From NCBI GenBank assembly GCA_035623075.1, contig DASPUC010000034.1, forward strand, positions 3,095-67,094: 64,000 nt of DNA. The letters run 5' to 3'. The translations under genes and the position numbers were made by a program. The notes under the pieces are model-generated. The model had not been told where the DNA came from. It did no database searches and saw only the letters and a list, made by a program, of their open reading frames with translations. Origin of the DNA: Nitrospiraceae bacterium (lineage in GTDB: Bacteria; Nitrospirota; Nitrospiria; Nitrospirales; Nitrospiraceae). Of this stretch, positions 12,292-63,080 are shown one piece after another (within the stretch, counting starts at the first letter, position 1; each line of letters starts with the position of its first letter).

Positions 12292-13635
12292 TTGCAGTTG
12301 CGATGGCATCAGCAGGTCGTCCTCGCCATCTTCCGCACGGGCTTCACTCTGGCCATCCTTCTGTTCGTGATCGTCTTGTTCCCGTTCTGGGTGCTCATCC
12401 CAAAACGACGGAAGACACTGTTCAAACGCCTCGGCTGGCAAGACTATCCCCGACGAGCACCGTCTTCCCCTGGACCGGTGTGGATCCATGCCCTGTCAGT
12501 GGGCGAGCTCTTATCAGCGGGAAGCCTCATCGAGAACCTGCGCCGTACGATCGGGGATCGGCCGCTATTCCTGTCGGTATCGACCTTATCGGCTTTTGTG
12601 ATTGCCACAGAGCGATTCCGTCGATTCTGTGACGGCCTGTTCTATTTCCCCTACGACGTCACCTATTCCGTGAGGAACTGCCTCGACAAAGTTGACCCGG
12701 CGCTGTTCGTGCTGGTTGAAACCGACATCTGGCCCGGGTTCCTCGCGGAACTCCGCCGGAGGGGGATTCTCTGCCTTCTGGTCAACGGACGCCTGTCCCC
12801 GGAATCGTTTCGCGCCTATCACTTCCTGCGGATGCTGTTCGAACCGGCGTTCAATACATTTCGGTGGGTCTATCCTCAGTCCTCTGGCGAAGCCGAGCGG
12901 TTTCTCGCGTTGGGGCTCGAACCGGCTCGGCTGCGCAGTGCGGGCAATCTCAAATTCGATGTGGCTCTGTCACTACCCGCAGATGAAGCATGTACGGCGC
13001 TTCAACAGGAACTCAACATCCCGCCTGGATCTCGCGTCATGATTGCCGGAAGCACTCATCCGGGAGAAGAAGACGTGATTCGTTCGGTGTTCCTTCGACT
13101 AAGAAAGGAATTTCCGCCCCTTCAGCTGATCATCGTGCCTCGTCGGCCGGAGCGAGGCGACGAGGTTGCGAACGTGTTTCGGAACGATGGTGTGCAGGTG
13201 GCGCTGCTCTCTCAACCAAAGAGCTCACCACCCGTGGTTGTGGTTGTGGATCGGATGGGCTATCTCAGTCGCTTGTACGCTCTGGCCGACATCGCGGTGG
13301 TCGGTGGGAGCTTCGTTCCCAAGGGCGGGCAGAATCCGATAGAACCGGCTGCCTGCGGAAAACCCGTCCTCTTCGGACCTGACATGCATGATTTTCCTGA
13401 CGTGTCCCGATGGTTGGTGGAGGCAGGAGGGGCTGTTCAAGTACGGAATGAGCAGGAACTATTCGCAGAGTGTCGGCGGTTGTTGGCAGACCCGCAACAG
13501 GCGAGGGTCATGGGAGACCGCGCCCGTGGCGTCGTGACGGCGAATCAAGGCACGACGGCAAGAATCGTCGCAGACATTACAGGTCTCGCGGCTGGCTCCT
13601 CCCCGCCATTGTCCTCATCTCTTTCAGGACTCTGA
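12292..13635 (+). CDS. waaA: 3-deoxy-D-manno-octulosonic acid (Kdo) transferase
   Basis: N-terminal membrane anchor, then VWIHALSVGELLSAGSLIENL (the HAxSVGE motif of KdtA/WaaA). C-terminal GGSFVPKGGQNPIEPAACGKPVLFGP. TTG start, exact start uncertain. Confidence 0.88.
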   Translation: MQLRWHQQVVLAIFRTGFTLAILLFVIVLFPFWVLIPKRRKTLFKRLGWQDYPRRAPSSPGPVWIHALSVGELLSAGSLIENLRRTIGDRPLFLSVSTLSAFVIATERFRRFCDGLFYFPYDVTYSVRNCLDKVDPALFVLVETDIWPGFLAELRRRGILCLLVNGRLSPESFRAYHFLRMLFEPAFNTFRWVYPQSSGEAERFLALGLEPARLRSAGNLKFDVALSLPADEACTALQQELNIPPGSRVMIAGSTHPGEEDVIRSVFLRLRKEFPPLQLIIVPRRPERGDEVANVFRNDGVQVALLSQPKSSPPVVVVVDRMGYLSRLYALADIAVVGGSFVPKGGQNPIEPAACGKPVLFGPDMHDFPDVSRWLVEAGGAVQVRNEQELFAECRRLLADPQQARVMGDRARGVVTANQGTTARIVADITGLAAGSSPPLSSSLSGL

Positions 13636-48353: not shown

Positions 48354-50630
48354 ATGTCGGAGAACTCGGATGAACTAAATGGATTGACCCGCCGGGAACT
48401 CACTAAGATCCTGGGAGCCTCCGTCGGACTGGCCTGCCTTGCGCCCCTGGCCGGCTGTGGCGAGCTTTGGGAACGCCAACCGGTCATCCCCGTTGACATC
48501 TGGCACAAGGGCGTCTGCCGGTTCTGCGGAACGGGCTGCGGCGTTATGATCGGCCTTAAGGATAATAAAATTGCCGACGTGAAAGGGGACGACGAGGGCC
48601 ACAACCGCGGTCGCCTCTGTATCAAGGGCTTGGCCACCCGTGACATTCTCTACACCGAAGGCCGCGCCCTGTACCCGATGATCCGGAAGAATGGTGAGTT
48701 CCAGCGGGCGAGCTGGGACGAAGCCATGGCGCTGGTGGCGCAAAAGTTCAAGGAATCGATCGAGACACATGGGCCGGACAGTGTGGCCTTCTATGGGAGT
48801 GGGCAGCTCTTCACGCAGGAGAGTTACACCGCGAATAAATTGTTCAAGGCCGGGATCGGCACCAACAATGTCGATGGGAACCCGCGCTTGTGCATGGCGT
48901 CGGCCGTCACCGGTTACACGACGACCTTTGGCAAGGATGAGCCAGCGGGCTGTTTCGAAGACATGGACGATGCCGAGTGTTTTTTTATCACGGGATCAAA
49001 CACTCTGGAGTGCCATCCGATACTCTGGGAACGCGTGCGGGACCGTAAGCGGAGTCACCCGGATACCAAGATCATCGTCGTGGACCCGCGCAAAACCTTT
49101 ACGGCACGGCACGCGGACCTATATCTACCCATCTATCCGGGGACGGACGTCTCCCTCTACAACGCGATGATTCACGTGTTTCTCGAACAGAAATTCGTCG
49201 ACGCGGACATGGTCGAACACTATCTCTCATTTCAGGAAGGCGAAGCGAACCGGACGTTCGACGACTTCAAGCGGCACATTGCGAACTTTACGCCGGAGGC
49301 GGCGGCCAAAACCTGCGGCATCACTCCGCGGGATATTCGCGAAGCGGCCTTTCTCTTCGCCTCGTCGAAGGCCACGATGTCGTTGTGGACCATGGGGCTG
49401 AACCAGCAAGCGCAGGGGACTGCGTCCAACCGGCTGGTCTGCGCGATGCATCTCCTGACGGGACACTTTGGCCGTCCCGGCGCCACACCGTTTTCGTTGA
49501 CTGGTCAGCCGAACGCCTGCGGCGGGGTGCGCGACACCGGCTCGCTCGCGCATGCGCTGCCGAACGGACGTCTGGTGGCCAACCCCAAGCACCGGGAGGA
49601 AATGGAGGATTTGTGGAATGTCCCGCGCGGGCGGATCAGTCCGAAGCCAGGCTTCCATGCCGTCGCTTTGTTTGACGCAATGAACCGCGGGGCAGTGAAA
49701 TGCTGTCTAGTGATGTGCACCAATCCTGGACAGACGCTCCCCAACGTCACGGCCTACCGGGAAGGGATGGAGAAGGCCTTCTTGGTCGTGGTGGACGCGT
49801 TTCATCCGACGGAAACGACACAATTCGCCGACGTGGTGCTGCCTGCCGCCCTATGGGTCGAGGAGGAAGGCGTCACGGGTAACGCGGAGCGACGCTATCA
49901 CCTCACTCCAAAACTCGTGGACCCACCTGGGGAAGCTAAAAGTGACCTCGAAATTCTGGTGGACCTGGCGGACCGCCTCGGCCACGGTGATCTGATCTCA
50001 GCCAGAACTCCGAAAGACGTGTGGGATGAATGGCGTAGGGTCTCAGCCCAGTCGAAATACAACTTTGAAGGCATTACCTACGAGCGGTTGCAGAAAGAGC
50101 GCGGGCTTCTCTGGCCCTGCCCGACGGAGACGCATCCGGGTACGAAACGGCGGTACGTCCCGGGTGAAGATCCCATGGCGACGGGCACGGGCCGGTTCGA
50201 TTTCTACGGAAAACCGGATGGACGAGCCACCGTCTGGCTGGATCATCAGGAAGAACCGCTTGATCCCTACACCGCCGAGTTTCCGCTGATCTTCAACACG
50301 GGCCGGATTCTAGAGCACTGGCATACGATGACCATCACTGGTAAGGCACCTACACTTCAGGGTATCCACCCCGACTACCTGGAGATCCACCCCTACGATG
50401 CCTATCAGTTACAAATCAAGGACGGTGATCCGGTTGTGGTGAAGAGCCGGCGCGGAGAAGTCGAGCTGCGGGCTCGTCTGACGGAGGTTGTGCGGCCAGG
50501 GATGGTGTTCGCAACCATGCACTCCGCCAAGCATCTGGTGAACCAATCCACTCAGGACGTCTACGATCCTTATTCGAAGCAACCAGCCTACAAACGTTGT
50601 GCGGTCGCAGTTCGGCGGAAGATGGCCTAG
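48354..50630 (+). CDS. Molybdopterin (bis-MGD) oxidoreductase of the Nap/Nas nitrate-reductase type, TAT signal plus lipobox
   Basis: TRRELTKILGASVGLACLAPLAGC (twin-Arg then LAGC). 4Fe-4S motif CRFCGTGCGV..CIKG. Mo-ligand context NPRLCMASAVTGY, and SLTGQPNACGG. GAGGAGGA RBS. Confidence 0.8.
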   Translation: MSENSDELNGLTRRELTKILGASVGLACLAPLAGCGELWERQPVIPVDIWHKGVCRFCGTGCGVMIGLKDNKIADVKGDDEGHNRGRLCIKGLATRDILYTEGRALYPMIRKNGEFQRASWDEAMALVAQKFKESIETHGPDSVAFYGSGQLFTQESYTANKLFKAGIGTNNVDGNPRLCMASAVTGYTTTFGKDEPAGCFEDMDDAECFFITGSNTLECHPILWERVRDRKRSHPDTKIIVVDPRKTFTARHADLYLPIYPGTDVSLYNAMIHVFLEQKFVDADMVEHYLSFQEGEANRTFDDFKRHIANFTPEAAAKTCGITPRDIREAAFLFASSKATMSLWTMGLNQQAQGTASNRLVCAMHLLTGHFGRPGATPFSLTGQPNACGGVRDTGSLAHALPNGRLVANPKHREEMEDLWNVPRGRISPKPGFHAVALFDAMNRGAVKCCLVMCTNPGQTLPNVTAYREGMEKAFLVVVDAFHPTETTQFADVVLPAALWVEEEGVTGNAERRYHLTPKLVDPPGEAKSDLEILVDLADRLGHGDLISARTPKDVWDEWRRVSAQSKYNFEGITYERLQKERGLLWPCPTETHPGTKRRYVPGEDPMATGTGRFDFYGKPDGRATVWLDHQEEPLDPYTAEFPLIFNTGRILEHWHTMTITGKAPTLQGIHPDYLEIHPYDAYQLQIKDGDPVVVKSRRGEVELRARLTEVVRPGMVFATMHSAKHLVNQSTQDVYDPYSKQPAYKRCAVAVRRKMA

Positions 50631-50645
50631 CGGAGGACTCTGACC

Positions 50646-51419
50646 ATGACAGAACAACTCGGGTCTCGCCGGAATCAGTTGATTGTCCTCATGGCGTTCC
50701 TTGCGGAAGCGTGGCTAGCGGCCTCTCCTGCATGGGCGGTCGAGACGCACGGCAGATGGTCAGACGTTGATGTCTTGCGCGGGATAGGCATAGCGGCCGC
50801 AGTGGGGGGCATCCTTCTGCTCATTCTGGTTCAGCACGTGTACCGAAACAAACTTCAGCATAGTACCTATCGGCGCCTGCTCCTCATCGGGTTGTTTGTG
50901 CTGCCGATTATCGTGACCTGGAGTACCACGAGGACGGTCATGGAGGGGACCAAGTCGGTGCAGGCCTGCATGTCCTGCCACGTGATGCAGCCCTTCGTCA
51001 ACGACATGGAAAATCCAAGCAGCCCGACGTTGGCCGCGCGGCACTACCGGAACAACTGGATTGCGAAAGACCAGTGCTACTCCTGTCACGTGACCTACGG
51101 CGCGACCGGTACCGTGGAAGGTAAACGAGACGGATTCCGACACTGGCTGTATTACATCACCAATACCTACGCGGATCCCATTCAGTACGCGGGCAGTTAC
51201 GACAATTCCAATTGTATGAACTGCCATCGAGGAACCGGCAAGTGGGAGCGTGTGAAGAGCCATCAAGCGCTCGTGGCAGAGCTTGCAGCAGACCGCATCG
51301 CATGTATCTCCTGTCACGGACCGCCCCATCCCCTACCGAGCGAGCGAAAAAAGATGGCGAGCCGAATAACAACGACCGCGGAGCTGGGAGGTCATTATGG
51401 AAACGACCAACGTCCCTGA
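50646..51419 (+). CDS. Membrane-anchored tetrahaem cytochrome c, NapC/NirT/NrfH-like
   Basis: N-terminal TM segments and four CxxCH motifs (CMSCH, CYSCH, CMNCH, CISCH). GGAGGA RBS. Confidence 0.75.
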   Translation: MTEQLGSRRNQLIVLMAFLAEAWLAASPAWAVETHGRWSDVDVLRGIGIAAAVGGILLLILVQHVYRNKLQHSTYRRLLLIGLFVLPIIVTWSTTRTVMEGTKSVQACMSCHVMQPFVNDMENPSSPTLAARHYRNNWIAKDQCYSCHVTYGATGTVEGKRDGFRHWLYYITNTYADPIQYAGSYDNSNCMNCHRGTGKWERVKSHQALVAELAADRIACISCHGPPHPLPSERKKMASRITTTAELGGHYGNDQRP

Positions 51420-55229: not shown

Positions 55230-55538
55230 ATGTTGTGGACTGTGAAAGACCTCGCACACAGGTTGAACATCAAACCCTCGACGGTCTACTCGTGGGCGAC
55301 GCACGGACGGATTCCCTGTCTCAAGATTCATGGCGCGCTCCGGTTCCGTCGTGAGGAGATCGAGCGCTGGCTGGAGTCGCTCCGAGTGCAGCAGCCACTC
55401 ACCGCACCAAGCGACCCTCACACAGCGCTCGATGTCCTCATTGCTCGGACGAAACAGCACGCCTATACTCCTCCTCCACGGGGAAGCCAGACCAGATCAA
55501 GCCTCATCAGGAAGGAGGAAACGGATGGGGCTCTATAA
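55230..55538 (+). CDS. Excisionase/AlpA-type helix-turn-helix DNA-binding protein
   Basis: LWTVKDLAHRLNIKPSTVYSWATHGRIPCLKIHGALRFRREEIERWL is a classic excisionase-family HTH. Immediately upstream of int, overlapping it by 14 nt. Confidence 0.75.
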   Translation: MLWTVKDLAHRLNIKPSTVYSWATHGRIPCLKIHGALRFRREEIERWLESLRVQQPLTAPSDPHTALDVLIARTKQHAYTPPPRGSQTRSSLIRKEETDGAL

Positions 55539-56601
55539 GCGACACCGTGTTTGGTGGATGAGTTTCACATACAACGGAGAACAGATTCGCCGTTCGACCG
55601 GCACAACCAATAAGCGATTAGCTGAGGCAATCTGCTCAAAAGTCAGAGTCAAGATCATTGAAGGCCAATACTTCGACCGAGGGGAAGAGCAGGATCGGAC
55701 CGTCGGAGAAATGATGGAGCGGTATTTTCGAGAGCGGGTTGCTGGTGGGAATCGTCATAGTGAGCGGCGAGCCCGCTCCATTCTTACCAACTTGCGCTCG
55801 GTGTTCGGCTCAAAAACACTCGCTGCGGTCACGCCGAAAGAAATTGCCACGTATAAGGCAAACCGTCACCAGCAAGGGGCCAAACCGGCAACGATCGCCA
55901 AAGAACTGGGGCTCATGAAGGCGGCCTACAACGTGGCTATTCGGGAATGGGAATGGTGCCGAGAGAATCCGGTCTGCCGGGTGATGTTTGGACGAATTCG
56001 GAATGCTCGCGTCCGGTATCTCGACGACGGGACGTTTGAACGGGTCGTCAAGGCATGTCCGGCCTGGCTCCAGCCCATCGTCCTGATCGCGCGCTACACC
56101 GGCATGCGGCGGGAGAACGTCGTGATGCTTCAGTGGTCGCAGGTGGATTTACACCGGAAGTTGATTGTCCTTGAGTCCACCAAAAATGGCGATCGGCTCG
56201 GGGTGCCCCTGTGTGATCCTGTGATGACCATCTTGCAAAAGTTAAGGGGCACGAGATTGAACCCCTTCGGACCTGTGTTCACTCGGCTGGATGGAGAACC
56301 CCTGACAGGTGATGCCGTGGGGATCGCCTTCGGGCGAGTCTGTCGTCGGATTGGGATTGAGGATTTCCGCTTTCACGATCTACGACACACGTTTGCGTCG
56401 AGCTTGGTGCAGCAAGGTGTGGATCTGTACCATGTACAGCGACTGTTAGGGCACCGAGATGGTCGGATGACCCAACGTTACGCGCATCTGGCACCTGAAA
56501 ATCTGCGTGACGCGATCCAGGTGTTCAATCGCGGTAATCACAAAATTAGCACACAGGCAGCGGACCGCTCTGAGAGCATGGCACTAAGTCCTTGGAAATA
56601 A
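55525..56601 (+). CDS. int: Tyrosine recombinase (phage-type integrase)
   Basis: GGAGGAA RBS. The C-terminal catalytic region FHDLRHTFASSLVQQGVDLYHVQRLLGHRDGRMTQRYAHL has the R..HxxR..H..Y pattern. The ORF opens at 55330, but the ATG at 55525 has the RBS. Confidence 0.88.
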   Translation: MGLYKRHRVWWMSFTYNGEQIRRSTGTTNKRLAEAICSKVRVKIIEGQYFDRGEEQDRTVGEMMERYFRERVAGGNRHSERRARSILTNLRSVFGSKTLAAVTPKEIATYKANRHQQGAKPATIAKELGLMKAAYNVAIREWEWCRENPVCRVMFGRIRNARVRYLDDGTFERVVKACPAWLQPIVLIARYTGMRRENVVMLQWSQVDLHRKLIVLESTKNGDRLGVPLCDPVMTILQKLRGTRLNPFGPVFTRLDGEPLTGDAVGIAFGRVCRRIGIEDFRFHDLRHTFASSLVQQGVDLYHVQRLLGHRDGRMTQRYAHLAPENLRDAIQVFNRGNHKISTQAADRSESMALSPWK

Positions 56602-56634
56602 GTGGTGGTCCCAACGGGATTCGAACCCGTGTTT
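56602..56634 (-). repeat. Right att-type direct repeat (identical 33 bp)
   Basis: Identical to 44102-44134. The flanking sequence on the right is not tRNA-like. Confidence 0.85.
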
Positions 56635-56783
56635 TAATTCGACTGCGACTTCGCCATTTATTTACGCGAGCTTCGATTATTTTCTTCCAGTCAGAATGGG
56701 GTATGACTAAAACATGGGGCTGAATTTAGGATTATGTGTAGGTATTAGGTTGGCGCTGATAGCATCGCTTCCGAAATGGCAGT

Positions 56784-57695
56784 TCAATGGAAAGTTCGCT
56801 TTGCTAGCAACCCCATGAGTCTGGTGTGGAGGGCAACCAGATCATGTATAACTGTGACCTTGCTATTGAGCAAGAGATGCTCGATAGCAAGTGCGCCTTG
56901 TCCGCCAATCGCAACAGCCCAGCGCATCGATAGAGATTCGAGTTCTTGGAGAAGTTGTCGTACCACTGCGTCCGACTTCACCTCAGTCAGAGACAGAAGA
57001 ACCAGATCAGGTTCGACACGCTCACAGAATGTCTGAAGATCGGAAATGGGAAGGTTCGGTCCGAGATAATAGACATGGCAACCCCGCGTGGCGGCGATAT
57101 ATGCCACAGCCTGTGCACCAATCTCATGGGGCTCACCTTCCGGACATGCAACCAGAACACGCGGCCCGAATTCGTTTACTGGAAGTTGGTTCGTGACTGA
57201 AAATAACTTCTGCTGAACGAGTTTTGTCACATAGTGTTCCACCGCAATACTCACTCGTCCTTCGTGCCATAGCTCTCCAACACGGCGTTGCAGCGGAAGC
57301 AGGATTCTCTGCAGCGCCTCTTCAAACGGGATGACCGCTACTGCCCCATTGAGCTTCCTTTCGAAGCGGGTTTTATCGAGCGGATCGAGGAGCTTAACCA
57401 GTTCGTCGAGGAGACTCGCGTGCGGCTGCAGTTCTTGCGTGGTGGGAATCCCGCTGGTCCGCATTCGTTGGAGTAACGAATCGCGCCCCTCTAATGCGAG
57501 CGCGCCGATCGTCTGGCCGCGATCCAGTTCCTCTTTCAGGAATCGAAGGAGCGTCACATCTTGGTCCGTGTATTCTCTATAGCGGTTTGCGCTGCGCAAA
57601 GGTTTGACTAGTTCATACCGCCTCTCCCAGACCCTTATCACATCCTTCGAGAGACCTGTTAGCTTCGCAACTATATGAATTCTATAAGTATTCAT
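56784..57695 (-). CDS. carH: MerR-family regulator with B12-binding domain, CarH/LitR-type light sensor
   Basis: MerR HTH (IVAKLTGLSKDVIRVWERRYELVKP). W-x9-EH motif (WHEGRVSIAVEH). Cobalamin His-on motif E-x-H-x-x-G (GEPHEIGA), followed by a Rossmann-like B12 domain. Confidence 0.8.
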   Translation of the reverse strand: MNTYRIHIVAKLTGLSKDVIRVWERRYELVKPLRSANRYREYTDQDVTLLRFLKEELDRGQTIGALALEGRDSLLQRMRTSGIPTTQELQPHASLLDELVKLLDPLDKTRFERKLNGAVAVIPFEEALQRILLPLQRRVGELWHEGRVSIAVEHYVTKLVQQKLFSVTNQLPVNEFGPRVLVACPEGEPHEIGAQAVAYIAATRGCHVYYLGPNLPISDLQTFCERVEPDLVLLSLTEVKSDAVVRQLLQELESLSMRWAVAIGGQGALAIEHLLLNSKVTVIHDLVALHTRLMGLLAKRTFH

Positions 57696-57707
57696 GACTT
57701 ATTGTTC

Positions 57708-57736
57708 ATAATATTCTTGCGTCCAGTGTTTGTCAA
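57708..57736 (-). promoter_or_regulatory. Sigma70-like promoter for the carH-like gene (near-leaderless)
   Basis: The minus strand reads TTGACA-17 nt-TATTAT. The -10 box ends 12 nt before the ATG at 57695. Confidence 0.5.
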
Positions 57737-57755
57737 ATATTTTAAATTACAACAC

Positions 57756-57784
57756 TTGACACATTGGACAACATGGGTTATACA
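57756..57784 (+). promoter_or_regulatory. Sigma70-like promoter for the plus-strand operon
   Basis: TTGACA (57756-57761), 17 nt spacer, TATACA (57779-57784). Confidence 0.5.
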
Positions 57785-57814
57785 TTAGACATACATTGAA
57801 CATACATTAAACAT
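57782..57814 (+). promoter_or_regulatory. Three tandem 11-bp direct repeats (candidate CarH operator)
   Basis: ACATTAGACAT / ACATTGAACAT / ACATTAAACAT are exactly contiguous. A fourth related copy, ACATTGGACAA, lies at 57761-57771 next to the -35 box. Confidence 0.6.
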
Positions 57815-57833
57815 CAAATATGCGGAGGTGATC

Positions 57834-58130
57834 ATGGCAACAGCGGCGGAGAAAAGAGAATCGGCGGCGGAACTCACGATGCAGGGCTTCTCCAGCAAAG
57901 GCATCCAAGGCGGACGGTGCCATCAGTGCGGAGGACTCATGGTCGGCGAGTTCTGCATGGACTTACTAAACGGCAGTGGGGAACTCGAGTTCCTCGCCTC
58001 ACGATGCGTCCAGTGCGGGGAGGTCGTCGATCCAGTGATTCTGATGAACCGGAGGCTGCAGCGGAGCGCAGCTGCGGCACAGCCAGGCGAGGTGCTTTCG
58101 CAGTCAGTCGGATCTCAGGTGGCAGCGTAG
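57834..58130 (+). CDS. Small zinc-ribbon protein
   Basis: CHQC..(29)..CVQC. GGAGG RBS before the ATG at 57834; the ORF opens at a GTG at 57828. Confidence 0.5.
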   Translation: MATAAEKRESAAELTMQGFSSKGIQGGRCHQCGGLMVGEFCMDLLNGSGELEFLASRCVQCGEVVDPVILMNRRLQRSAAAAQPGEVLSQSVGSQVAA

Positions 58131-58188
58131 CGATGCGCTCAACCGACCAGGATGGTCCTGGTCTTTCTCAACACTAAGGAGGTTTCTC

Positions 58189-59154
58189 ATGCGGAGTCAA
58201 ATGGTTCTTCAGGCAGGATTAGGCGTTTTGTTGGCAGTTGGTTCTGCTTCTCTGGCCACGGCGGACAAGCCGAATACCGACAAGGATATGGTCAAGATCC
58301 CTCGATCCGAATTTACGATGGGGAGTCATGAACATGCGGATGAGGCCCCGCACCAAGTGGTGTTGGACAGCTACCTGATCGATAAGTACGAGGTCTCAAA
58401 TGCGCGATTCAAAGAATTCATGAAGGCCACCGGGCATCCGGCTCCTGCGTATTGGGATGATCCGCGACTCAGCAAACCCAATCAGCCAGTCGTCGGTGTG
58501 AGTTGGAACGATGCCAATGCCTTTTGCATCTGGGAAGGCAAGCGACTGCCGACCGAGGCGGAATGGGAGCGGGCGGCGAAGGGTCCGGAGGGCGACAATC
58601 ACTACCCGTGGGGACATAAGCTCGATCCGCAGAAAGCCAATTATGGACAGAACGTCGGTCGGACCATGCCGGTGGACTCCTACCCTGAAGGTGTCAGCGG
58701 ATTTGGGGTGTACAACATGGCAGGAAACGTCTTCGAATGGGTCGCTGACTGGTATGACCCAAAGTACTATAAGGAGAGCCTCGCCCTGAATCCGCAAGGG
58801 CCGGATAAAGGATACAACTTCGCGAATCAGGGGCCTGTGAAGGTACTGCGCGGGGGCTCCTGGCTGGCGCCGGAGACCTCGTTGCACACAAGCCACCGGT
58901 TCTGGAACCAGCCCGACAACAACTCCTATGGAGTAGGCCTCGGGTTCCGTTGCGCGAAGTCGGCTCCCGCCATCTCTGACGAATCGATCCAGGCGGGACG
59001 TGACGCTTTCATTGCCGCCCTTGTTGCAATGGGAGCGGAAAAACACGCGGACGCAATGGCCTCAATTGAAAAGGCTCTGGCTGCCGATCCGGGGAACAAG
59101 GAATATCTGGCCACCCGTGATCTCATCAAGAAGAACATGAAGAAGAAACACTAA
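58189..59154 (+). CDS. Secreted FGE-sulfatase-fold (SUMF1/PvdO/NirV-like) protein lacking the FGE catalytic Cys pair
   Basis: Signal peptide, RLPTEAEWERAAKG, GNVFEWVADWY, LRGGSW and GFRCAKS. There are no cysteines after RGGSW, where true FGEs have the C-x4-C motif. Confidence 0.8.
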   Translation: MRSQMVLQAGLGVLLAVGSASLATADKPNTDKDMVKIPRSEFTMGSHEHADEAPHQVVLDSYLIDKYEVSNARFKEFMKATGHPAPAYWDDPRLSKPNQPVVGVSWNDANAFCIWEGKRLPTEAEWERAAKGPEGDNHYPWGHKLDPQKANYGQNVGRTMPVDSYPEGVSGFGVYNMAGNVFEWVADWYDPKYYKESLALNPQGPDKGYNFANQGPVKVLRGGSWLAPETSLHTSHRFWNQPDNNSYGVGLGFRCAKSAPAISDESIQAGRDAFIAALVAMGAEKHADAMASIEKALAADPGNKEYLATRDLIKKNMKKKH

Positions 59155-59299: not shown

Positions 59300-59668
59300 A
59301 TGACACAGTACACGACACTGGTTCTCGGAATTTCTTTCAGTGCGTTCCTGCGAGTGGCCCCTCTCATGGCCGGGCCCATCGATCCAGTCCAGCATCCACA
59401 CCCGGAGCAAGCGACATCGGTCCACGAAGCCGAGCATGCTGTGGACCACGCATGGGAGGTCTATCACCGGGCGGCATTAGGGGGAACCGTGGCGTCCCCT
59501 GCTCTGCAGGCCGAGATTGAGGAGCATCTGCACGAGGCCAGAACCCTCGTGACTCGGGCACAGGAGGCGGCCGAACGCGGAGACAAACGTGAGGTGGATC
59601 ATCTGGTCGGGCAAGTGAAGATTCATTCGACAAAAGCCATCGAAGGCAGCAAGGAGCCGAAGAAATGA
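59300..59668 (+). CDS. Small secreted His-rich helical protein (possible metal-binding)
   Basis: Hydrophobic N-terminus, then PVQHPHPEQATSVHEAEHAVDHAWEVYHR..EEHLHEA. Overlaps the next gene by 4 nt. Confidence 0.5.
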   Translation: MTQYTTLVLGISFSAFLRVAPLMAGPIDPVQHPHPEQATSVHEAEHAVDHAWEVYHRAALGGTVASPALQAEIEEHLHEARTLVTRAQEAAERGDKREVDHLVGQVKIHSTKAIEGSKEPKK

Positions 59669-60501
59669 AATCTGCCTCTGATAACGGACCGCTGTGCCGA
59701 ACACTTTGTGTGGTGATCGTGATTTCAACTTGTACCCTGAGTCCGGCGCTGGCAGCGTCAGCGGATCGGAAAGAGATTGATCCGGTCCCCATGGTGATGA
59801 TTCCAGCCGGAGAGTTCTTGATGGGCAGTCCGGAAGGACAAGGGCGCGCCGATGAGCGGCCTCAACGGTCAGTGTACCTCGACGCGTTCGCAATTGATCA
59901 AGTCGAAGTGACCAATAAACGGTATATGGCCTTCGTCACAGCAACGGGCCATCGCAGTCCGCCGAACCCATACGGAACGGGCCCGTTGGTGTCCATCAAA
60001 GGCATTGAGCAACTCCCTGTCGTGCAAACAACTTGGTACGACGCCAAGGCCTACTGTAGTTGGGCCAAGAAGCGACTGCCGACGGAGGCGGAATGGGAAA
60101 AGGCAGCTCGTGGCACGGACGGCCGGCTGTACCCCTGGGGCAACGAACCGGCCACATTGAAGCGTGCCAACTTCGACCGCGAATGGGAGGAAGACAAGAC
60201 CTTATATCCGGTTGGATCGCTGCTGGGAGGCGACTCGCCGTACGGGGTGAAAGACATGGCCGGCAATGCCAGAGAGTGGGTTGCCGACTGGTACGACGGG
60301 GACTACTACAAACTGGCACCGGTTCGGAATCCACAAGGACCCGACAAAAAGGGGGTCGTCCGGTCGATCCGCGGTGGATCTTGGCACAGCCCAGTGGGTG
60401 ATATCACCACCACCGCGAGAGGTCGTGGTGGGTTTGCGTTGCAGACCCACGGAACCGGTTTCCGCTGCGCGAGTAGTCTGGATGGTGATCAACAGAAATA
60501 G
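59665..60501 (+). CDS. Second secreted FGE-sulfatase-fold paralog, also lacking the catalytic Cys pair
   Basis: Signal or lipoprotein-like N-terminus, RLPTEAEWEKAARG, GNAREWVADWY, IRGGSWHSP and GFRCASS. Confidence 0.8.
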   Translation: MKSASDNGPLCRTLCVVIVISTCTLSPALAASADRKEIDPVPMVMIPAGEFLMGSPEGQGRADERPQRSVYLDAFAIDQVEVTNKRYMAFVTATGHRSPPNPYGTGPLVSIKGIEQLPVVQTTWYDAKAYCSWAKKRLPTEAEWEKAARGTDGRLYPWGNEPATLKRANFDREWEEDKTLYPVGSLLGGDSPYGVKDMAGNAREWVADWYDGDYYKLAPVRNPQGPDKKGVVRSIRGGSWHSPVGDITTTARGRGGFALQTHGTGFRCASSLDGDQQK

Positions 60502-60699
60502 TCGCGGAGGATTCGTCAATGTTTGAGGGTGAGTTGTGGAGCTTCGGAGGCCGGTACACATGTTACCTGTGGTGGCGCCGCAACTCCGCACGGCGTTACC
60601 CACTAAGGTCGACGGGTCCTGATCCCCTGTGAAGGGCCCGTCCCCCTTGGTGCCATTTGGATTGACGCCTTATTGAATATCTTATGGGAGGAGAACGCT

Positions 60700-61617
60700 G
60701 TGAACGTTGTGGTAGCAGGCGGAACGGGATTTATTGGGAGGAGTCTCTGTAAGAGGCTTCTTCTTTGCGGTCACCGTGTGACGATTCTGACGAGGAGACG
60801 AACGGAAGTCGAACGCCTGTTTGGGACAATGGTGAAACCAATCGAATGGGATGGCACCTCATCGGGCCGCTGGGAAGAGGCGTTACAAGGAACACAGGCG
60901 GTGGTGAACCTCGCCGGGGCCTCGATTGCCGAAGCACGCTGGACGGAGAGCCGAAAGCAGTTGCTCACTCAAAGTAGACTTAATGCGACACGTGCACTTG
61001 TCCAAGCCTGCTTCCGTCTGCCGGTGACGCCACAGGTGCTCATAAACGCGTCAGGTATTGGGTTCTATGGCCACCAGGATGATCGGGTGGTCGATGAAGC
61101 TAGCCCAGCTGGTAAGGGATTTCTGGCTGATTTATGTGTGCAGTGGGAATCAGCCGCGCAGAAAGCCGCTGCAAAGGGTATTCGAACCGTCTGTCTAAGG
61201 ACCGGTCTGGTGCTTGGAGACGACGGAGGCGCACTCCCTCGCATGGTCCTGCCGTTCCGGCTTTTCATAGGAGGACCTGCGGGGCCCGGCACTCAGTGGG
61301 TCTCGTGGATTCATCGGGATGATTATGCGGGACTCATCGAGTGGACGCTTTCGACACCGAGTGTATCCGGACCCGTTAACGCTGTGGCACCAGAACCAGT
61401 CACCATGACGGAATTCTGCAGAACACTCGGTCAGGTGTTGCACAGGCCCTCGTGGATTCCCGTGCCTGAAGTTGTGTTCGGGTTGGCCTTGGGAGAACTT
61501 GGATCTCTCATGACAACGGGTCAACGAGTGAAGCCGGCGAAGGCGGAACAAGGGGGATACCGTTTTCAGTATTCGTACCTCACCAAGGCCTTACAGAATA
61601 TCTTCACCCTGCAGTGA
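60700..61617 (+). CDS. YfcH-like (TIGR01777, DUF1731) SDR-family epimerase/oxidoreductase
   Basis: NVVVAGGTGFIGRSL Rossmann motif, and a C-terminal ..GQRVKPAKAEQGGYRFQY.. typical of YfcH. GGGAGGAG RBS 6 nt before the GTG at 60700; the ORF opens at a TTG at 60673. Confidence 0.75.
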   Translation: MNVVVAGGTGFIGRSLCKRLLLCGHRVTILTRRRTEVERLFGTMVKPIEWDGTSSGRWEEALQGTQAVVNLAGASIAEARWTESRKQLLTQSRLNATRALVQACFRLPVTPQVLINASGIGFYGHQDDRVVDEASPAGKGFLADLCVQWESAAQKAAAKGIRTVCLRTGLVLGDDGGALPRMVLPFRLFIGGPAGPGTQWVSWIHRDDYAGLIEWTLSTPSVSGPVNAVAPEPVTMTEFCRTLGQVLHRPSWIPVPEVVFGLALGELGSLMTTGQRVKPAKAEQGGYRFQYSYLTKALQNIFTLQ

Positions 61618-61634
61618 CACGAGGTGCCTGTATA

Positions 61635-63080
61635 ATGCGCAGCATCGTTTGGTTCAGGCGCGATCTCAGACTCCACGATAACCCGGCCCTCATGGCAGCC
61701 TGCAAGGAGTGCGACGAGATCATTCCCCTCTTCGTGTTTGACGAACCACTCCTGCAATCGCATGAGTTCGGTCCGGCCTGCGTGAACTTCATGCTCGGAT
61801 GCTTAGAGGACCTCGCGTCCTCGCTCGCCAAGCTGGGGCTTCCTTTCCAATGGCGGCGCGGCACGCAGGGCGAGGAAGTCGTGAATGCGGCGAAGAGTTG
61901 GAAGGCCGACATCGTATACTGGAACCGCGACTATGAGCCGGGCGCGATCAAACGAGATCTCATCGTGGCTCAACGACTGGCTAAGCTCGGGGTGATTGTG
62001 CGCACGTTCAAGGACCATGTCGTGTTTGAAGCCGAAGAGGTCCGGAGCGCCACTGGCGAACCGCTGCAGCGCTATAGTGCCTATCGGGCGCGCTGGTGGG
62101 CCAAGTGGCACGCGGTGAAGCCGCTGCCGTTGCCGGTCCCCTCGACCGTGAAGCGCCCGAAGGCGGACCGGTTGCTGTTACCTCTCCCGCTGCCTTCGGC
62201 TTCGGATCTGGGATATGAACTCCTTACGCCATGGATCGGACCGGGGGAATGTCGGGCCCGCAAGCGCCTTGAAGAATTTCTCGCTGGTCCCATTCATCGC
62301 TATGTCGACGGCCGAAACCTTCCGGGAATCGACGGAAGCTCCAAGCTCTCTCCCCATTTCCGTTTCGGCACGCTCTCGCCGCGGGACGCGGTTCATGCGG
62401 CGCTCGGTACATTAGCGAAAGGCGGGCGCGTCTCGCGCCCTGATATCCTGACCTGGATCGATGAATTGATCTGGCGAGAGTTCTTCCAACAGGTATTGAC
62501 TGCCTTCCCGCGGGTCGTCGAAGGGCCGTTCCGGTATGCGGCCGTATCTCCTCCACGGGAACGGGACCCTGAGCGGGATCCCTTGTTTCAGGCCTGGTGC
62601 GAGGGACGGACGGGCTATCCGATCGTTGATGCCGGCATGCGTCAACTGAATCAGACCGGCTGGATGCACAACCGAGTGCGCATGATCGTGGCGTCATTCC
62701 TAATCAAGGATCTTCGGATCGACTGGCAGCGCGGAGAGCGGTATTTCATGAATCACCTTCTCGACGCCGACGTGGCTGCTAACAACGGCAACTGGCAGTG
62801 GTGCGCTTCGACCGGGACGGATGCGATGCGCGCGTACCGGATCTTTAACCCCGCGTTGCAGAGCAAAAAGTTCGATCCCGATGGGGCGTATATTCGCCGC
62901 TATGTGCCGGAACTGGCGCGGGTGGCCACCCAGCGGATTCATGAGCCCCATGTGATGACTCTCGATGAACAGAGCCGGTCCCATTGTCGCATTGGGGTGG
63001 ACTACCCCTCGCCGGTTGTGGATCATCGACAGGCTCGCCGGGAATACCTCGGCCTCAGCAAACAGCAGGTAAGGCGGTGA
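61635..63080 (+). CDS. phrB: Deoxyribodipyrimidine photolyase (CPD class I type)
   Basis: IVWFRRDLRLHDNPAL, SKLSPHFRFGTLSPR, WREFF, TGYPIVDAGMRQL..GWMHNR.R, and NNGNWQW. Confidence 0.9.
   Translation: MRSIVWFRRDLRLHDNPALMAACKECDEIIPLFVFDEPLLQSHEFGPACVNFMLGCLEDLASSLAKLGLPFQWRRGTQGEEVVNAAKSWKADIVYWNRDYEPGAIKRDLIVAQRLAKLGVIVRTFKDHVVFEAEEVRSATGEPLQRYSAYRARWWAKWHAVKPLPLPVPSTVKRPKADRLLLPLPLPSASDLGYELLTPWIGPGECRARKRLEEFLAGPIHRYVDGRNLPGIDGSSKLSPHFRFGTLSPRDAVHAALGTLAKGGRVSRPDILTWIDELIWREFFQQVLTAFPRVVEGPFRYAAVSPPRERDPERDPLFQAWCEGRTGYPIVDAGMRQLNQTGWMHNRVRMIVASFLIKDLRIDWQRGERYFMNHLLDADVAANNGNWQWCASTGTDAMRAYRIFNPALQSKKFDPDGAYIRRYVPELARVATQRIHEPHVMTLDEQSRSHCRIGVDYPSPVVDHRQARREYLGLSKQQVRR

Follow-up and report, generated by a model that had tools for sequence, protein, structure and literature searches.

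The 138-bp spacer between carH and the operon transcribed away from it quite probably comprises two back-to-back promoters, each overlaid by candidate sites of the adjacent CarH-type repressor, and would serve as a B12-dependent light switch for the operon and for carH. This reading is carried by the sequence elements themselves, by their non-random phasing and selective conservation, by an almost exclusive association with carH homologs and by the CarH motifs of the encoded protein. The first-pass annotation of the window (the whole stretch of 64,000 nucleotides that was analysed) had proposed a candidate CarH operator at this place. The proposal is supported, and it is amended here to a DR0-DR1-DR3 design, with an additional site (L1-L2) and a weaker -10 box on the plus strand. 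The elements of the spacer and the gene to its left are the following.

56784-57695, minus strand: carH, encoding a 303-aa MerR-type protein with a B12-binding module (class I LitR/CarH), assigned by Pfam, structure search and motifs
57708-57713, minus strand: -10 box TATTAT of the predicted carH promoter, 12 nt before the carH ATG
57719-57729, minus strand: candidate repeat L2, ACACTGGACGC, inside the predicted carH promoter spacer and in exact 11-bp tandem with L1; core identity 0.88
57730-57740, minus strand: candidate repeat L1, ATATTTGACAA, containing the -35 box TTGACA (57736-57731); core identity 0.98
57737-57755, no strand: AT-rich stretch between the back-to-back -35 boxes; conservation moderate, 0.54 over 57741-57755
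57756-57761, plus strand: -35 box TTGACA of the predicted operon promoter, assigned by sequence; TTGA invariant in 29 spacers
57761-57771, plus strand: candidate repeat DR0, ACATTGGACAA, fitting nnnnTnnACAn, in the spacer of the predicted promoter; DR1 follows at 21 bp (two helical turns)
57772-57781, plus strand: weak unit CATGGGTTAT between DR0 and DR1; core 1/4, outside the TnnACA rule
57779-57786, plus strand: -10 region of the predicted operon promoter, either TATACA with a 17-nt spacer (57779-57784) or TACATT with a 19-nt spacer (57781-57786)
57782-57792, plus strand: candidate repeat DR1, ACATTAGACAT, overlapping the predicted -10 box; 27/29 orthologs have the full core, core identity 0.97
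57793-57803, plus strand: candidate repeat DR2, ACATTGAACAT, the central tandem unit; intact in the window and in 7/29 orthologs, core identity 0.69
57804-57814, plus strand: candidate repeat DR3, ACATTAAACAT, predicted to fall early in the transcript; 23/29 orthologs have the full core, core identity 0.90
57824-57836, plus strand: ribosome-binding site GGAGG (57824-57828) and ATG (57834-57836) of the first operon gene; GGAGG...ATG conserved in the alignment

Every hexamer and 11-mer named in the first-pass annotation was recovered at its position by direct reading of the sequence, including the three head-to-tail 11-bp units DR1, DR2 and DR3 on the plus strand. The spacer had also been called the most AT-rich stretch of the window and is so, with a GC content of 0.319 at 57696-57833; the lowest-GC stretch of 138 bp lies at 57684-57821 (0.275), followed by a runner-up at 0.399, the window mean being 0.572. 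The array at 57780-57814 presents the top Tandem Repeats Finder score of the window (56, period 11, 3.2 copies), and the triple at 57782-57814 scores 12/12 for nnnnTnnACAn in phase. Three TnnACA cores in 11-bp phase with at most one mismatch are expected 0.06 times per whole window, and when the spacer itself was shuffled 20,000 times with its dinucleotides preserved, a 12/12 triple arose in 31 cases (P = 0.0016). The lone 11-mer pattern ACATTNNACAT, with one mismatch, showed no window-wide enrichment (8 found vs 8.3 expected). Since the single 11-mer is not enriched and the phased triple is rare by chance, the non-random feature is the clustering and phasing of the units. The search for other operator sites in the window gave a single further match, 11/12 and at chance level, inside a coding region (12987-13019).

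The operator rule given in the first-pass annotation, tandem 11-bp direct repeats of the form nAnnTnnACAn, is correct (PMC8156234), and in the later repeat consensus, nnnnTnnACAn, position 2 is dropped (PMC9304148). The units had been said to keep the T-n-n-A-C-A core and the 11-bp phase, and all four on the plus strand do match nnnnTnnACAn. DR0-DR3 have C at position 2 (ACAT...), where the strict nAnnTnnACAn has A, and this departure from the strict consensus counts against the main reading. No fourth unit stands in 11-bp phase with DR2, 57771-57781 and 57815-57825 not being repeats.

The DNA comes from a nitrite-oxidising Nitrospira, and the layout of the spacer is kept throughout the 32 orthologous loci that were fetched, with protein identities of 49-79% and including Nitrospira moscoviensis (L003). 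Column conservation was taken from an alignment of 29 Nitrospira spacers. The invariant or nearly invariant columns are both -35 boxes, the plus-strand TATA(CATT) and positions T5, A8, C9 and A10 of the repeats, specifically T5/A8/C9/A10 of DR1 and DR3 and T5/A8/C9 of L2; the 'n' positions vary, as do the flanks. In the repeat cores mean pairwise identity is 0.84-0.98, with the exception of the DR2 core (0.69), and the background values are 0.43 (carH four-fold synonymous sites) and 0.38-0.42 (spacer flanks). As their identity matches that of the synonymous sites, the flanks drift at the neutral rate. The conservation of L2 and DR3 is not explained by contacts with RNA polymerase, because L2 lies in the promoter spacer and DR3 downstream of the -10 box. 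The comparison of orthologous spacers for loss of the repeats, suggested in the first-pass annotation, thus ended with the repeats kept at T5/A8/C9/A10 in these 29 spacers, and a refutation by loss fails.

The three exactly tandem repeats of the first-pass annotation are intact in the window; as a general design they do not hold, the central DR2 being full in 7/29 orthologs only and carrying a 1-nt insertion in four species. The perfect tandem triple of the window is thus a minority state among the orthologs. DR0, the fourth related unit of that annotation, is present at 57761-57771 and is better conserved than the central unit (full TnnACA core in 23/29 vs 7/29 orthologs; core identity 0.84). 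Most species (22) place DR0 at 21 bp from DR1; 4 have 22 bp here, and 3, with a degenerate DR0, have 20 bp. DR1 and DR3 stand at a distance of 22 bp in 25 of the species and of 23 bp in the other 4. The weak unit at 57772-57781 is conserved only in its 3' TAT, which is part of the -10 box. Judged from the alignment, the conserved design has strong units (DR0, DR1 and DR3) on one face of the helix at intervals of two turns, separated by weak ones. With DR2 degenerate in 22/29 orthologs and a 23-bp DR1-DR3 distance in four, "three tandem repeats per tetramer" is not literally transferable to this group, and this counts against the main reading.

Back-to-back consensus promoters had been described for the spacer, a description that stands for the minus strand, where TTGACA (57736-57731), a 17-nt spacer and TATTAT (57713-57708) scored 11/12 in the promoter scan. 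It stands less well for the plus strand, where TATACA is without the final T and was missed by the scan. The final T of a -10 box is usually essential, and its absence is a further point against the main reading. In the alignment TATA (57779-57782) is invariant and CATT is conserved at 90% or more. The carH -10 candidates fit TAnnnT in 29/33 spacers, which favours TACATT as a putative alternative -10 for the operon promoter. The leader RNA of the operon is predicted to be unstructured (-2.4 kcal/mol, z = +1.8 vs shuffles).

On the carH side, a TAnnnT hexamer was identified 16-18 nt (mostly 17-18) past the -35 box in those 29 of 33 spacers (the window plus L001-L032), at 6-13 nt from the ATG, and the carH -10 boxes drift freely within TAnnnT among orthologs. 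With a -10 box so close to the start codon, the carH mRNA is probably leaderless or near-leaderless. The L1-L2 tandem pair, absent from the first-pass annotation, covers the -35 box and the spacer of the predicted carH promoter; L2 reads ACATTGGACnn in most orthologs, with T5, A8 and C9 invariant in 29 spacers. From this position an autoregulation of carH would be implied. Both arrays overlap predicted promoter elements, these being consensus matches: L1 contains the -35 box and DR1 overlaps TATACA/TACATT. The distance from one -35 start to the other is 23-26 nt among orthologs, and given this variable length the left and right operators would have no fixed mutual phase.

The specificity of the array was addressed with a scan on both strands of 394 kb, made up of the window and every genome locus fetched (about 9 kb each), for triples scoring at least 11/12, and such triples were identified almost only in spacers upstream of carH homologs. 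Among these are the distant Methylobacter carH homologs (L034 and L035), with four tandem repeats beside the start codon, and a carH homolog from a Gemmatimonadetes MAG (L036), with the array upstream; the array-bearing loci of both groups are without the Nitrospira operon. The two-turn pattern, [nnnnTnnACAn]-N10/11-[nnnnTnnACAn]-N11/12-[nnnnTnnACAn], was found nowhere in the 394 kb outside carH spacers, with the exception of a second module in L009. In that locus the Zn-ribbon/FGE operon lies apart from carH and has its own full bidirectional copy of the module, which faces a DCC1-like oxidoreductase gene. As this split operon retains a copy, the module travels with its target genes. Some Nitrospira contain two paralogs with near-identical operators (L027 and L031, on one contig; L016-L018). 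A metagenome scan with TTGACACATTGGACA gave at least 120 stretches; among the matches listed, 9 are true modules, all apparently of the carH/Zn-ribbon spacer type as judged by their own sequence, and no new regulon targets were found among the matches listed.

The protein encoded by carH had been described as CarH-type, and it presents all the CarH sequence signatures, its best solved relative being Thermus CarH. Pfam identified MerR_1 (E 1.5e-13), B12-binding_2 (E 1.2e-10) and B12-binding (E 3e-11), and the top matches among solved structures, over residues 3-272, were Thermus thermophilus CarH/LitR 3whp (E 6e-31) and 5c8d (E 7.5e-31). The features separating CarH from the B12-independent CarA are given in PMC9304148 as RxWERRY, Wx9EH and the B12 motif D/ExHx2G/P-x41-SxT/V-x22-27-GG; Wx9EH caps the adenosyl group, and the loss of such features marks B12-independent relatives. 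In the window protein the recognition-helix motif reads RVWERRY, Wx9EH is intact (residue 143, WHEGRVSIAVEH, the Trp being followed by a His) and the B12 motif is complete from residue 188 (EPHEIG-x41-SLT-x26-GG), the lower axial His included. Wx9EH is present in 33/33 Nitrospira sequences and the full B12 motif in 29/33.

Two observations on the same protein count against the main reading. The best NCBIfam match is the CarH equivalog NF052513 with 140 bits, below the cut-off of 400. The threshold of this family is narrow, and by its sequence the product is to be classed as a CarH-type homolog, not as the NCBI-defined equivalog. In the alignment with the Thermus protein both residues of the head-to-tail salt bridge (R176 to P, D201 to N) and one glycine of the tetramer interface (G160 to V) are changed, G192 being kept, and with the R176-D201 salt bridge of Thermus absent the oligomeric state is not readable from sequence. 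Thermus-type interface residues vary among functional CarH proteins, one of them dimeric (PMC9304148). None of the 10 flanking genes compared with Pfam is a cobalamin gene and no cobalamin riboswitch was found in the window, a result uninformative for either side.

The genes on the plus strand downstream of the predicted operon promoter are the following.

57834-58130, plus strand: first gene, a 98-aa four-cysteine Zn-ribbon protein of an orphan family
58189-59154, plus strand: FGE-sulfatase-domain protein (PF03781)
59300-59668, plus strand: 122-aa His-rich protein
59665-60501, plus strand: second FGE-sulfatase-domain protein (PF03781)
60673-61617, plus strand: TIGR01777-family SDR
61614-63080, plus strand: class I CPD photolyase

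The Zn-ribbon gene is the first after the operator in most loci. Its product matched no Pfam or NCBIfam family; 143 homologs were identified, the named ones mostly as 'hypothetical protein' and, where an organism is given, from Nitrospirota, with the invariant core CxxCGGLMV...RCVQCGEVVDPVIL. The AlphaFold model is mediocre (pLDDT 61). An assignment to the Thermus small zinc-finger protein ZifS, the best fold match, was rejected as not significant (E 0.21), and the literature search on ZifS returned unrelated material only. The two FGE-sulfatase-domain proteins match PF03781 with E-values of 7e-55 and 5e-56. The order ZnR-FGE-(FGE)-P122-FGE is conserved across the Nitrospira loci, in full Zn-ribbon, FGE, sometimes an FGE-like gene, the 122-aa His-rich protein, FGE, sometimes a second Zn-ribbon, the TIGR01777 SDR and the class I photolyase. 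The pair SDR-photolyase stands in the same order in L011, L014, L015, L019, L024 and L025. No repeat array was found in the 171-nt gap before the SDR gene, and SDR and photolyase are possibly co-transcribed with the Zn-ribbon/FGE operon. Photolyase and short-chain dehydrogenase genes are members of LitR/CarH-family regulons in other bacteria (PMC9758184), which makes both plausible CarH targets here. No carotenoid genes were found near carH or the operon, which counts against the main reading.

Several known systems can be compared with this spacer. The reported CarH operators contain three repeats in Thermus and four in Bacillus megaterium, overlapping a -35 or a -10 box, and binding is also reported for operators in which one or two repeats are good and the others degenerate (PMC9304148, PMC8156234). 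In Thermus one head-to-tail dimer holds the non-adjacent DR1 and DR3 (PMC9304148); by analogy the two-turn spacing of the strong repeats is compatible with this geometry, although not literally. The system is like that of Thermus thermophilus (5C8D/5C8E/5C8F) in the domain order and motifs of the protein (E 6e-31), in 11-bp direct repeats with T5 and A8-C9-A10, one of which holds the carH -35 box (L1 here), and in a carH that diverges from the regulated genes. It differs in that the Thermus repeats are three and contiguous, whereas here three strong ones stand at 21-23-bp intervals and a two-repeat site is added on the minus strand. Position 2 is A there and C here, R176/D201 are absent here and the targets are not carotenoid genes. 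In Bacillus megaterium repeats may lie over the -10 box as well as the -35 box and one degenerate unit is tolerated (PMC9304148), and DR1 here overlaps the predicted -10 box; the Bacillus operator has four contiguous units, unlike this one, with no fourth in-phase unit.

The Pcrt operator of the Myxococcus/Cystobacter CarH-CarA system, of about 55 bp, is arranged as DR1-dr2-DR3-DR4-dr5 (PMC9304148). It resembles the five-unit array of about 54 bp seen here in mixing good and degenerate repeats, in a plastic number of good ones and in a -35 TTGACA inside a repeat (DR4 in Myxococcus, L1 here), and differs from the strong-weak-strong-weak-strong order of the present array. An accessory system of the CarS/CarA type, as in Myxococcus/Cystobacter, is absent here. 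The second, opposed site at the Nitrospira carH promoter is a layout not found among the operator designs in the consulted passages of PMC9304148. The class II LitR regulons of Pseudomonas (PplR/PmlR) also have a light-induced photolyase and a short-chain dehydrogenase near the regulator (PMC9758184), but class II LitR lacks the Rossmann B12 domain and depends on a LOV partner, whereas the Nitrospira protein has a complete B12 module.

The proposed mechanism may be stated as follows; the binding, its stoichiometry, the dependence on B12 and light, the start sites and the extent of the operon are what we infer from the above. In the dark the AdoCbl-loaded protein would oligomerise, by analogy with Thermus and Bacillus CarH into a tetramer of head-to-tail dimers, and its winged-helix domains would dock on the 11-bp nnnnTnnACAn direct repeats. 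On the operon side the protein bound at DR0, DR1, (DR2) and DR3 (57761-57814) would lie over the promoter from its spacer through the -10 box and on into the first ~20 transcribed bases, and RNA polymerase would be excluded from the operon promoter or trapped on it. On the carH side L1-L2 (57740-57719) would cover the -35 box and the spacer, producing negative autoregulation. UV-to-green light would cleave the Co-C bond, the oligomer would disassemble and both promoters would fire. Light would then turn on both carH, whose mRNA would have little or no leader, and the Zn-ribbon/FGE-like operon, whose transcript may extend into the SDR and photolyase genes.

Three other explanations of the same spacer were considered. 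The first, an improbable one, keeps a CarH-family operator and has a regulator that is not a light sensor, responding to B12 availability or another signal or needing a partner protein. Some classes of the LitR/CarH family do sense in other ways (PMC9758184). A partner is required by class II LitR (a LOV protein) and by CarA (CarS). The lost dimer-interface salt bridge of Thermus, the paralogs with near-identical operators in some Nitrospira and the small orphan Zn-ribbon protein that heads the regulated genes in most loci also point in this direction. The light sensor is favoured by the photolyase downstream on the same strand and by three features that the window protein and most orthologs retain intact: Wx9EH, the His that follows its Trp and the whole lower-ligand B12 motif. 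It is still less probable that the array is bound by another protein, such as an autoregulating Zn-ribbon protein or an unlinked global regulator, with CarH acting elsewhere or on the inverted L2/DR0 only. Nothing physically ties the carH product to this DNA. DR0 and L2 stand inverted to each other on either side of the two -35 boxes, and palindromes are the usual targets of MerR proteins. L2/DR0 was considered as a dimer palindrome and rejected, its half-sites being ~40 bp apart with a distance that varies by up to 3 bp among orthologs. Against another binding protein stand the conserved positions of the 11-mer, which are those of the experimentally defined CarH repeat, and the similar arrays that precede the Methylobacter and Gemmatimonadetes carH homologs, where the Nitrospira operon is missing.

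The least probable explanation, to which very little weight is given, has the units acting in RNA, as a CA-rich unstructured leader that enhances translation, or arising by neutral slippage in AT-rich DNA. DR2 and DR3 would indeed fall in the 5' leader, which is less structured than shuffled controls, and AT-rich spacers are richer in TnnACA than coding DNA (8 in this spacer vs 0.76 expected from the window density). The motif is conserved, however, also at DR0 and L1-L2, upstream of the predicted starts and on both strands, and its conservation is position-specific and far above the neutral rate, besides the phasing (P = 0.0016 in spacer shuffles). A structured RNA element was rejected: there was no Rfam match (56400-58300 at the E-value threshold; the whole window at gathering thresholds) and the leader folds worse than shuffles. 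The preferred reading is that of two opposed promoters under candidate CarH sites.

A wider reading, doubtful when all its parts are taken jointly, is that of a non-carotenoid B12-photoreceptor regulon in Nitrospira and relatives, with Zn-ribbon feedback, two-turn operator reading and control of a leaderless carH. Light would derepress periplasmic FGE-like enzymes and their His-rich partner, headed by the orphan Zn-ribbon protein, which may itself exert feedback, on CarH or on RNA polymerase, in the manner of Myxococcus CarS. Head-to-tail dimers would occupy DR0-DR1-DR3, two turns apart and with the central repeat dispensable, and the opposed two-repeat site would control the leaderless carH.

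Nitrite oxidisers are not phototrophs, and nitrification is photoinhibited. The photolyases of nitrite oxidisers have been noted in genome studies, one of which, on the Great Lakes, treats those of Nitrospira and mentions no regulator. The literature searched describes no CarH, light sensor or light regulon in Nitrospira or nitrite oxidisers. It also contains no binding, B12 or light experiments on any Nitrospira CarH, which counts against the main reading. The type of switch is already known; in the Nitrospira group it is so far undescribed in that literature, its operator layout is moderately unusual and its regulon is unusual.

The conserved operator, being defined by sequence, makes the proposed light switch testable in a cultured species, as Nitrospira moscoviensis carries this module too (L003), and its pattern is a search tool for the rest of the regulon. 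As a natural variant, bidirectional and with strong repeats every two turns, it bears on the number of DNA-binding domains needed per CarH oligomer. It would also place two sets of proteins in a regulatory context for the first time, the orphan Zn-ribbon family and the FGE-like periplasmic proteins that are abundant in Nitrospira. If the wider reading is true, nitrite oxidisers would have their first defined light-sensing pathway, and the photoinhibition of nitrification could be approached through it.

The carH gene, which encodes the CarH-type MerR/B12-binding repressor, is preceded by a -10 box separated from the ATG by only 12 nt (57696-57713), and in the orthologous Nitrospira and Nitrospirales loci (L001-L032) the end of this box lies 6-13 nt from the start codon. 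No Shine-Dalgarno sequence is present before carH in 57696-57713 or in the equivalent region of these orthologues. The predicted carH mRNA is probably leaderless or near-leaderless throughout Nitrospirales.

The other flank of carH is occupied by an integrase gene and a tRNA/tmRNA-like fragment.

55330-56601, tyrosine integrase gene, ending 2 nt before the tRNA/tmRNA-like fragment
56603-56631, 28-nt fragment (TGGTGGTCCCAACGGGATTCGAACCCGT) that matches, in reverse complement, the 3' end of a tRNA/tmRNA (positions 346-363 of Rfam tmRNA)

Neither a tRNA nor a tmRNA gene was found intact in the window, whereas in the closest relatives (L001, L008 and L003, the latter being N. moscoviensis) carH is followed downstream, after about 90 bp, by an intact tRNA-Leu(CAG). 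This difference points to an integration or rearrangement event next to carH in the window genome. The region 48354-51419, some 6 kb upstream of this integrase and with no relation to the operator, encodes a molybdopterin oxidoreductase with Fe4S4, Molybdopterin and Molydop_binding domains and, after it, a multihaem cytochrome of the NapC/NirT type.

Tandem arrays of the 11-bp unit with the TnnACA core were also identified in more distant Nitrospirales and at distant carH homologues.

L028:3929-3961 and L032:1368-1400, more distant Nitrospirales, tandem repeats on duplicated TTGACA boxes
L034:3955-3998 and L035:3955-3998, Methylobacter, four perfect tandem TnnACA units
L036:3746-3778, Gemmatimonadetes carH homologue, triple repeat scoring 11/12

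The first two read TTATTTGACAA-ACTATTGACAA-ACATTAAACAA and, as they sit on the duplicated TTGACA, the operator has therefore left the -10 side of the operon promoter for its -35 side. In Methylobacter, whose carH homologues share 32% identity, the four repeats lie directly before the start codon, and the Gemmatimonadetes triple lies about 220 bp upstream; these arrays look like further undescribed candidate CarH operators. The sole other triple-repeat match in the window (12987-13019, 11/12) falls inside a 447-aa ORF (12292-13635); it is regarded as a chance match.

The operon also encodes two small proteins. The 98-aa Zn-ribbon protein (57834-58130) has 143 homologues, all of those with an organism name belonging to Nitrospirota, and shares with them the invariant core CxxCGGLMV...RCVQCGEVVDPVIL. 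It belongs to an orphan family; a search for a profile-family match returned none, and the best match of a fold search was the small zinc-finger protein ZifS of Thermus, at a non-significant E of 0.21. Paralogous copies were identified in L009, L011 and L014, and some genomes contain a second copy ahead of the SDR-photolyase pair. The other protein is encoded between the two FGE-like genes.

59300-59668, gene of the 122-aa protein, with a 4-nt overlap with the next gene

Its N-terminus is signal-peptide-like, it carries a His-rich stretch (PVQHPHPEQATSVHEAEHAVDH) and its matches in Pfam are all sub-threshold; the protein may handle metals as a partner to the FGE-like enzymes.

The Nitrospirales locus L009 presents a second copy of the back-to-back promoters with repeats, 2.4 kb distant from carH and upstream of a Zn-ribbon/FGE1 pair (FGE1 being the first FGE-sulfatase-domain gene).

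L009:1402-1500, second complete bidirectional module, with inverted unit, two -35 boxes and DR0-DR3
L009:1666-2076, DCC1-like thiol-disulfide oxidoreductase gene (PF04134, E 1e-25), facing this module

Some Nitrospira contain two carH paralogues a few kb apart (L027 and L031 on contig JAYWIP010000165.1; L016-L018), with about 50% and 78% identity to the window protein, each preceded by a near-identical repeat module of its own wherever upstream DNA is visible. Cross-regulation between the paralogues is thus possible, and the second complete module in L009 is evidence for a predicted CarH regulon with multiple operators.
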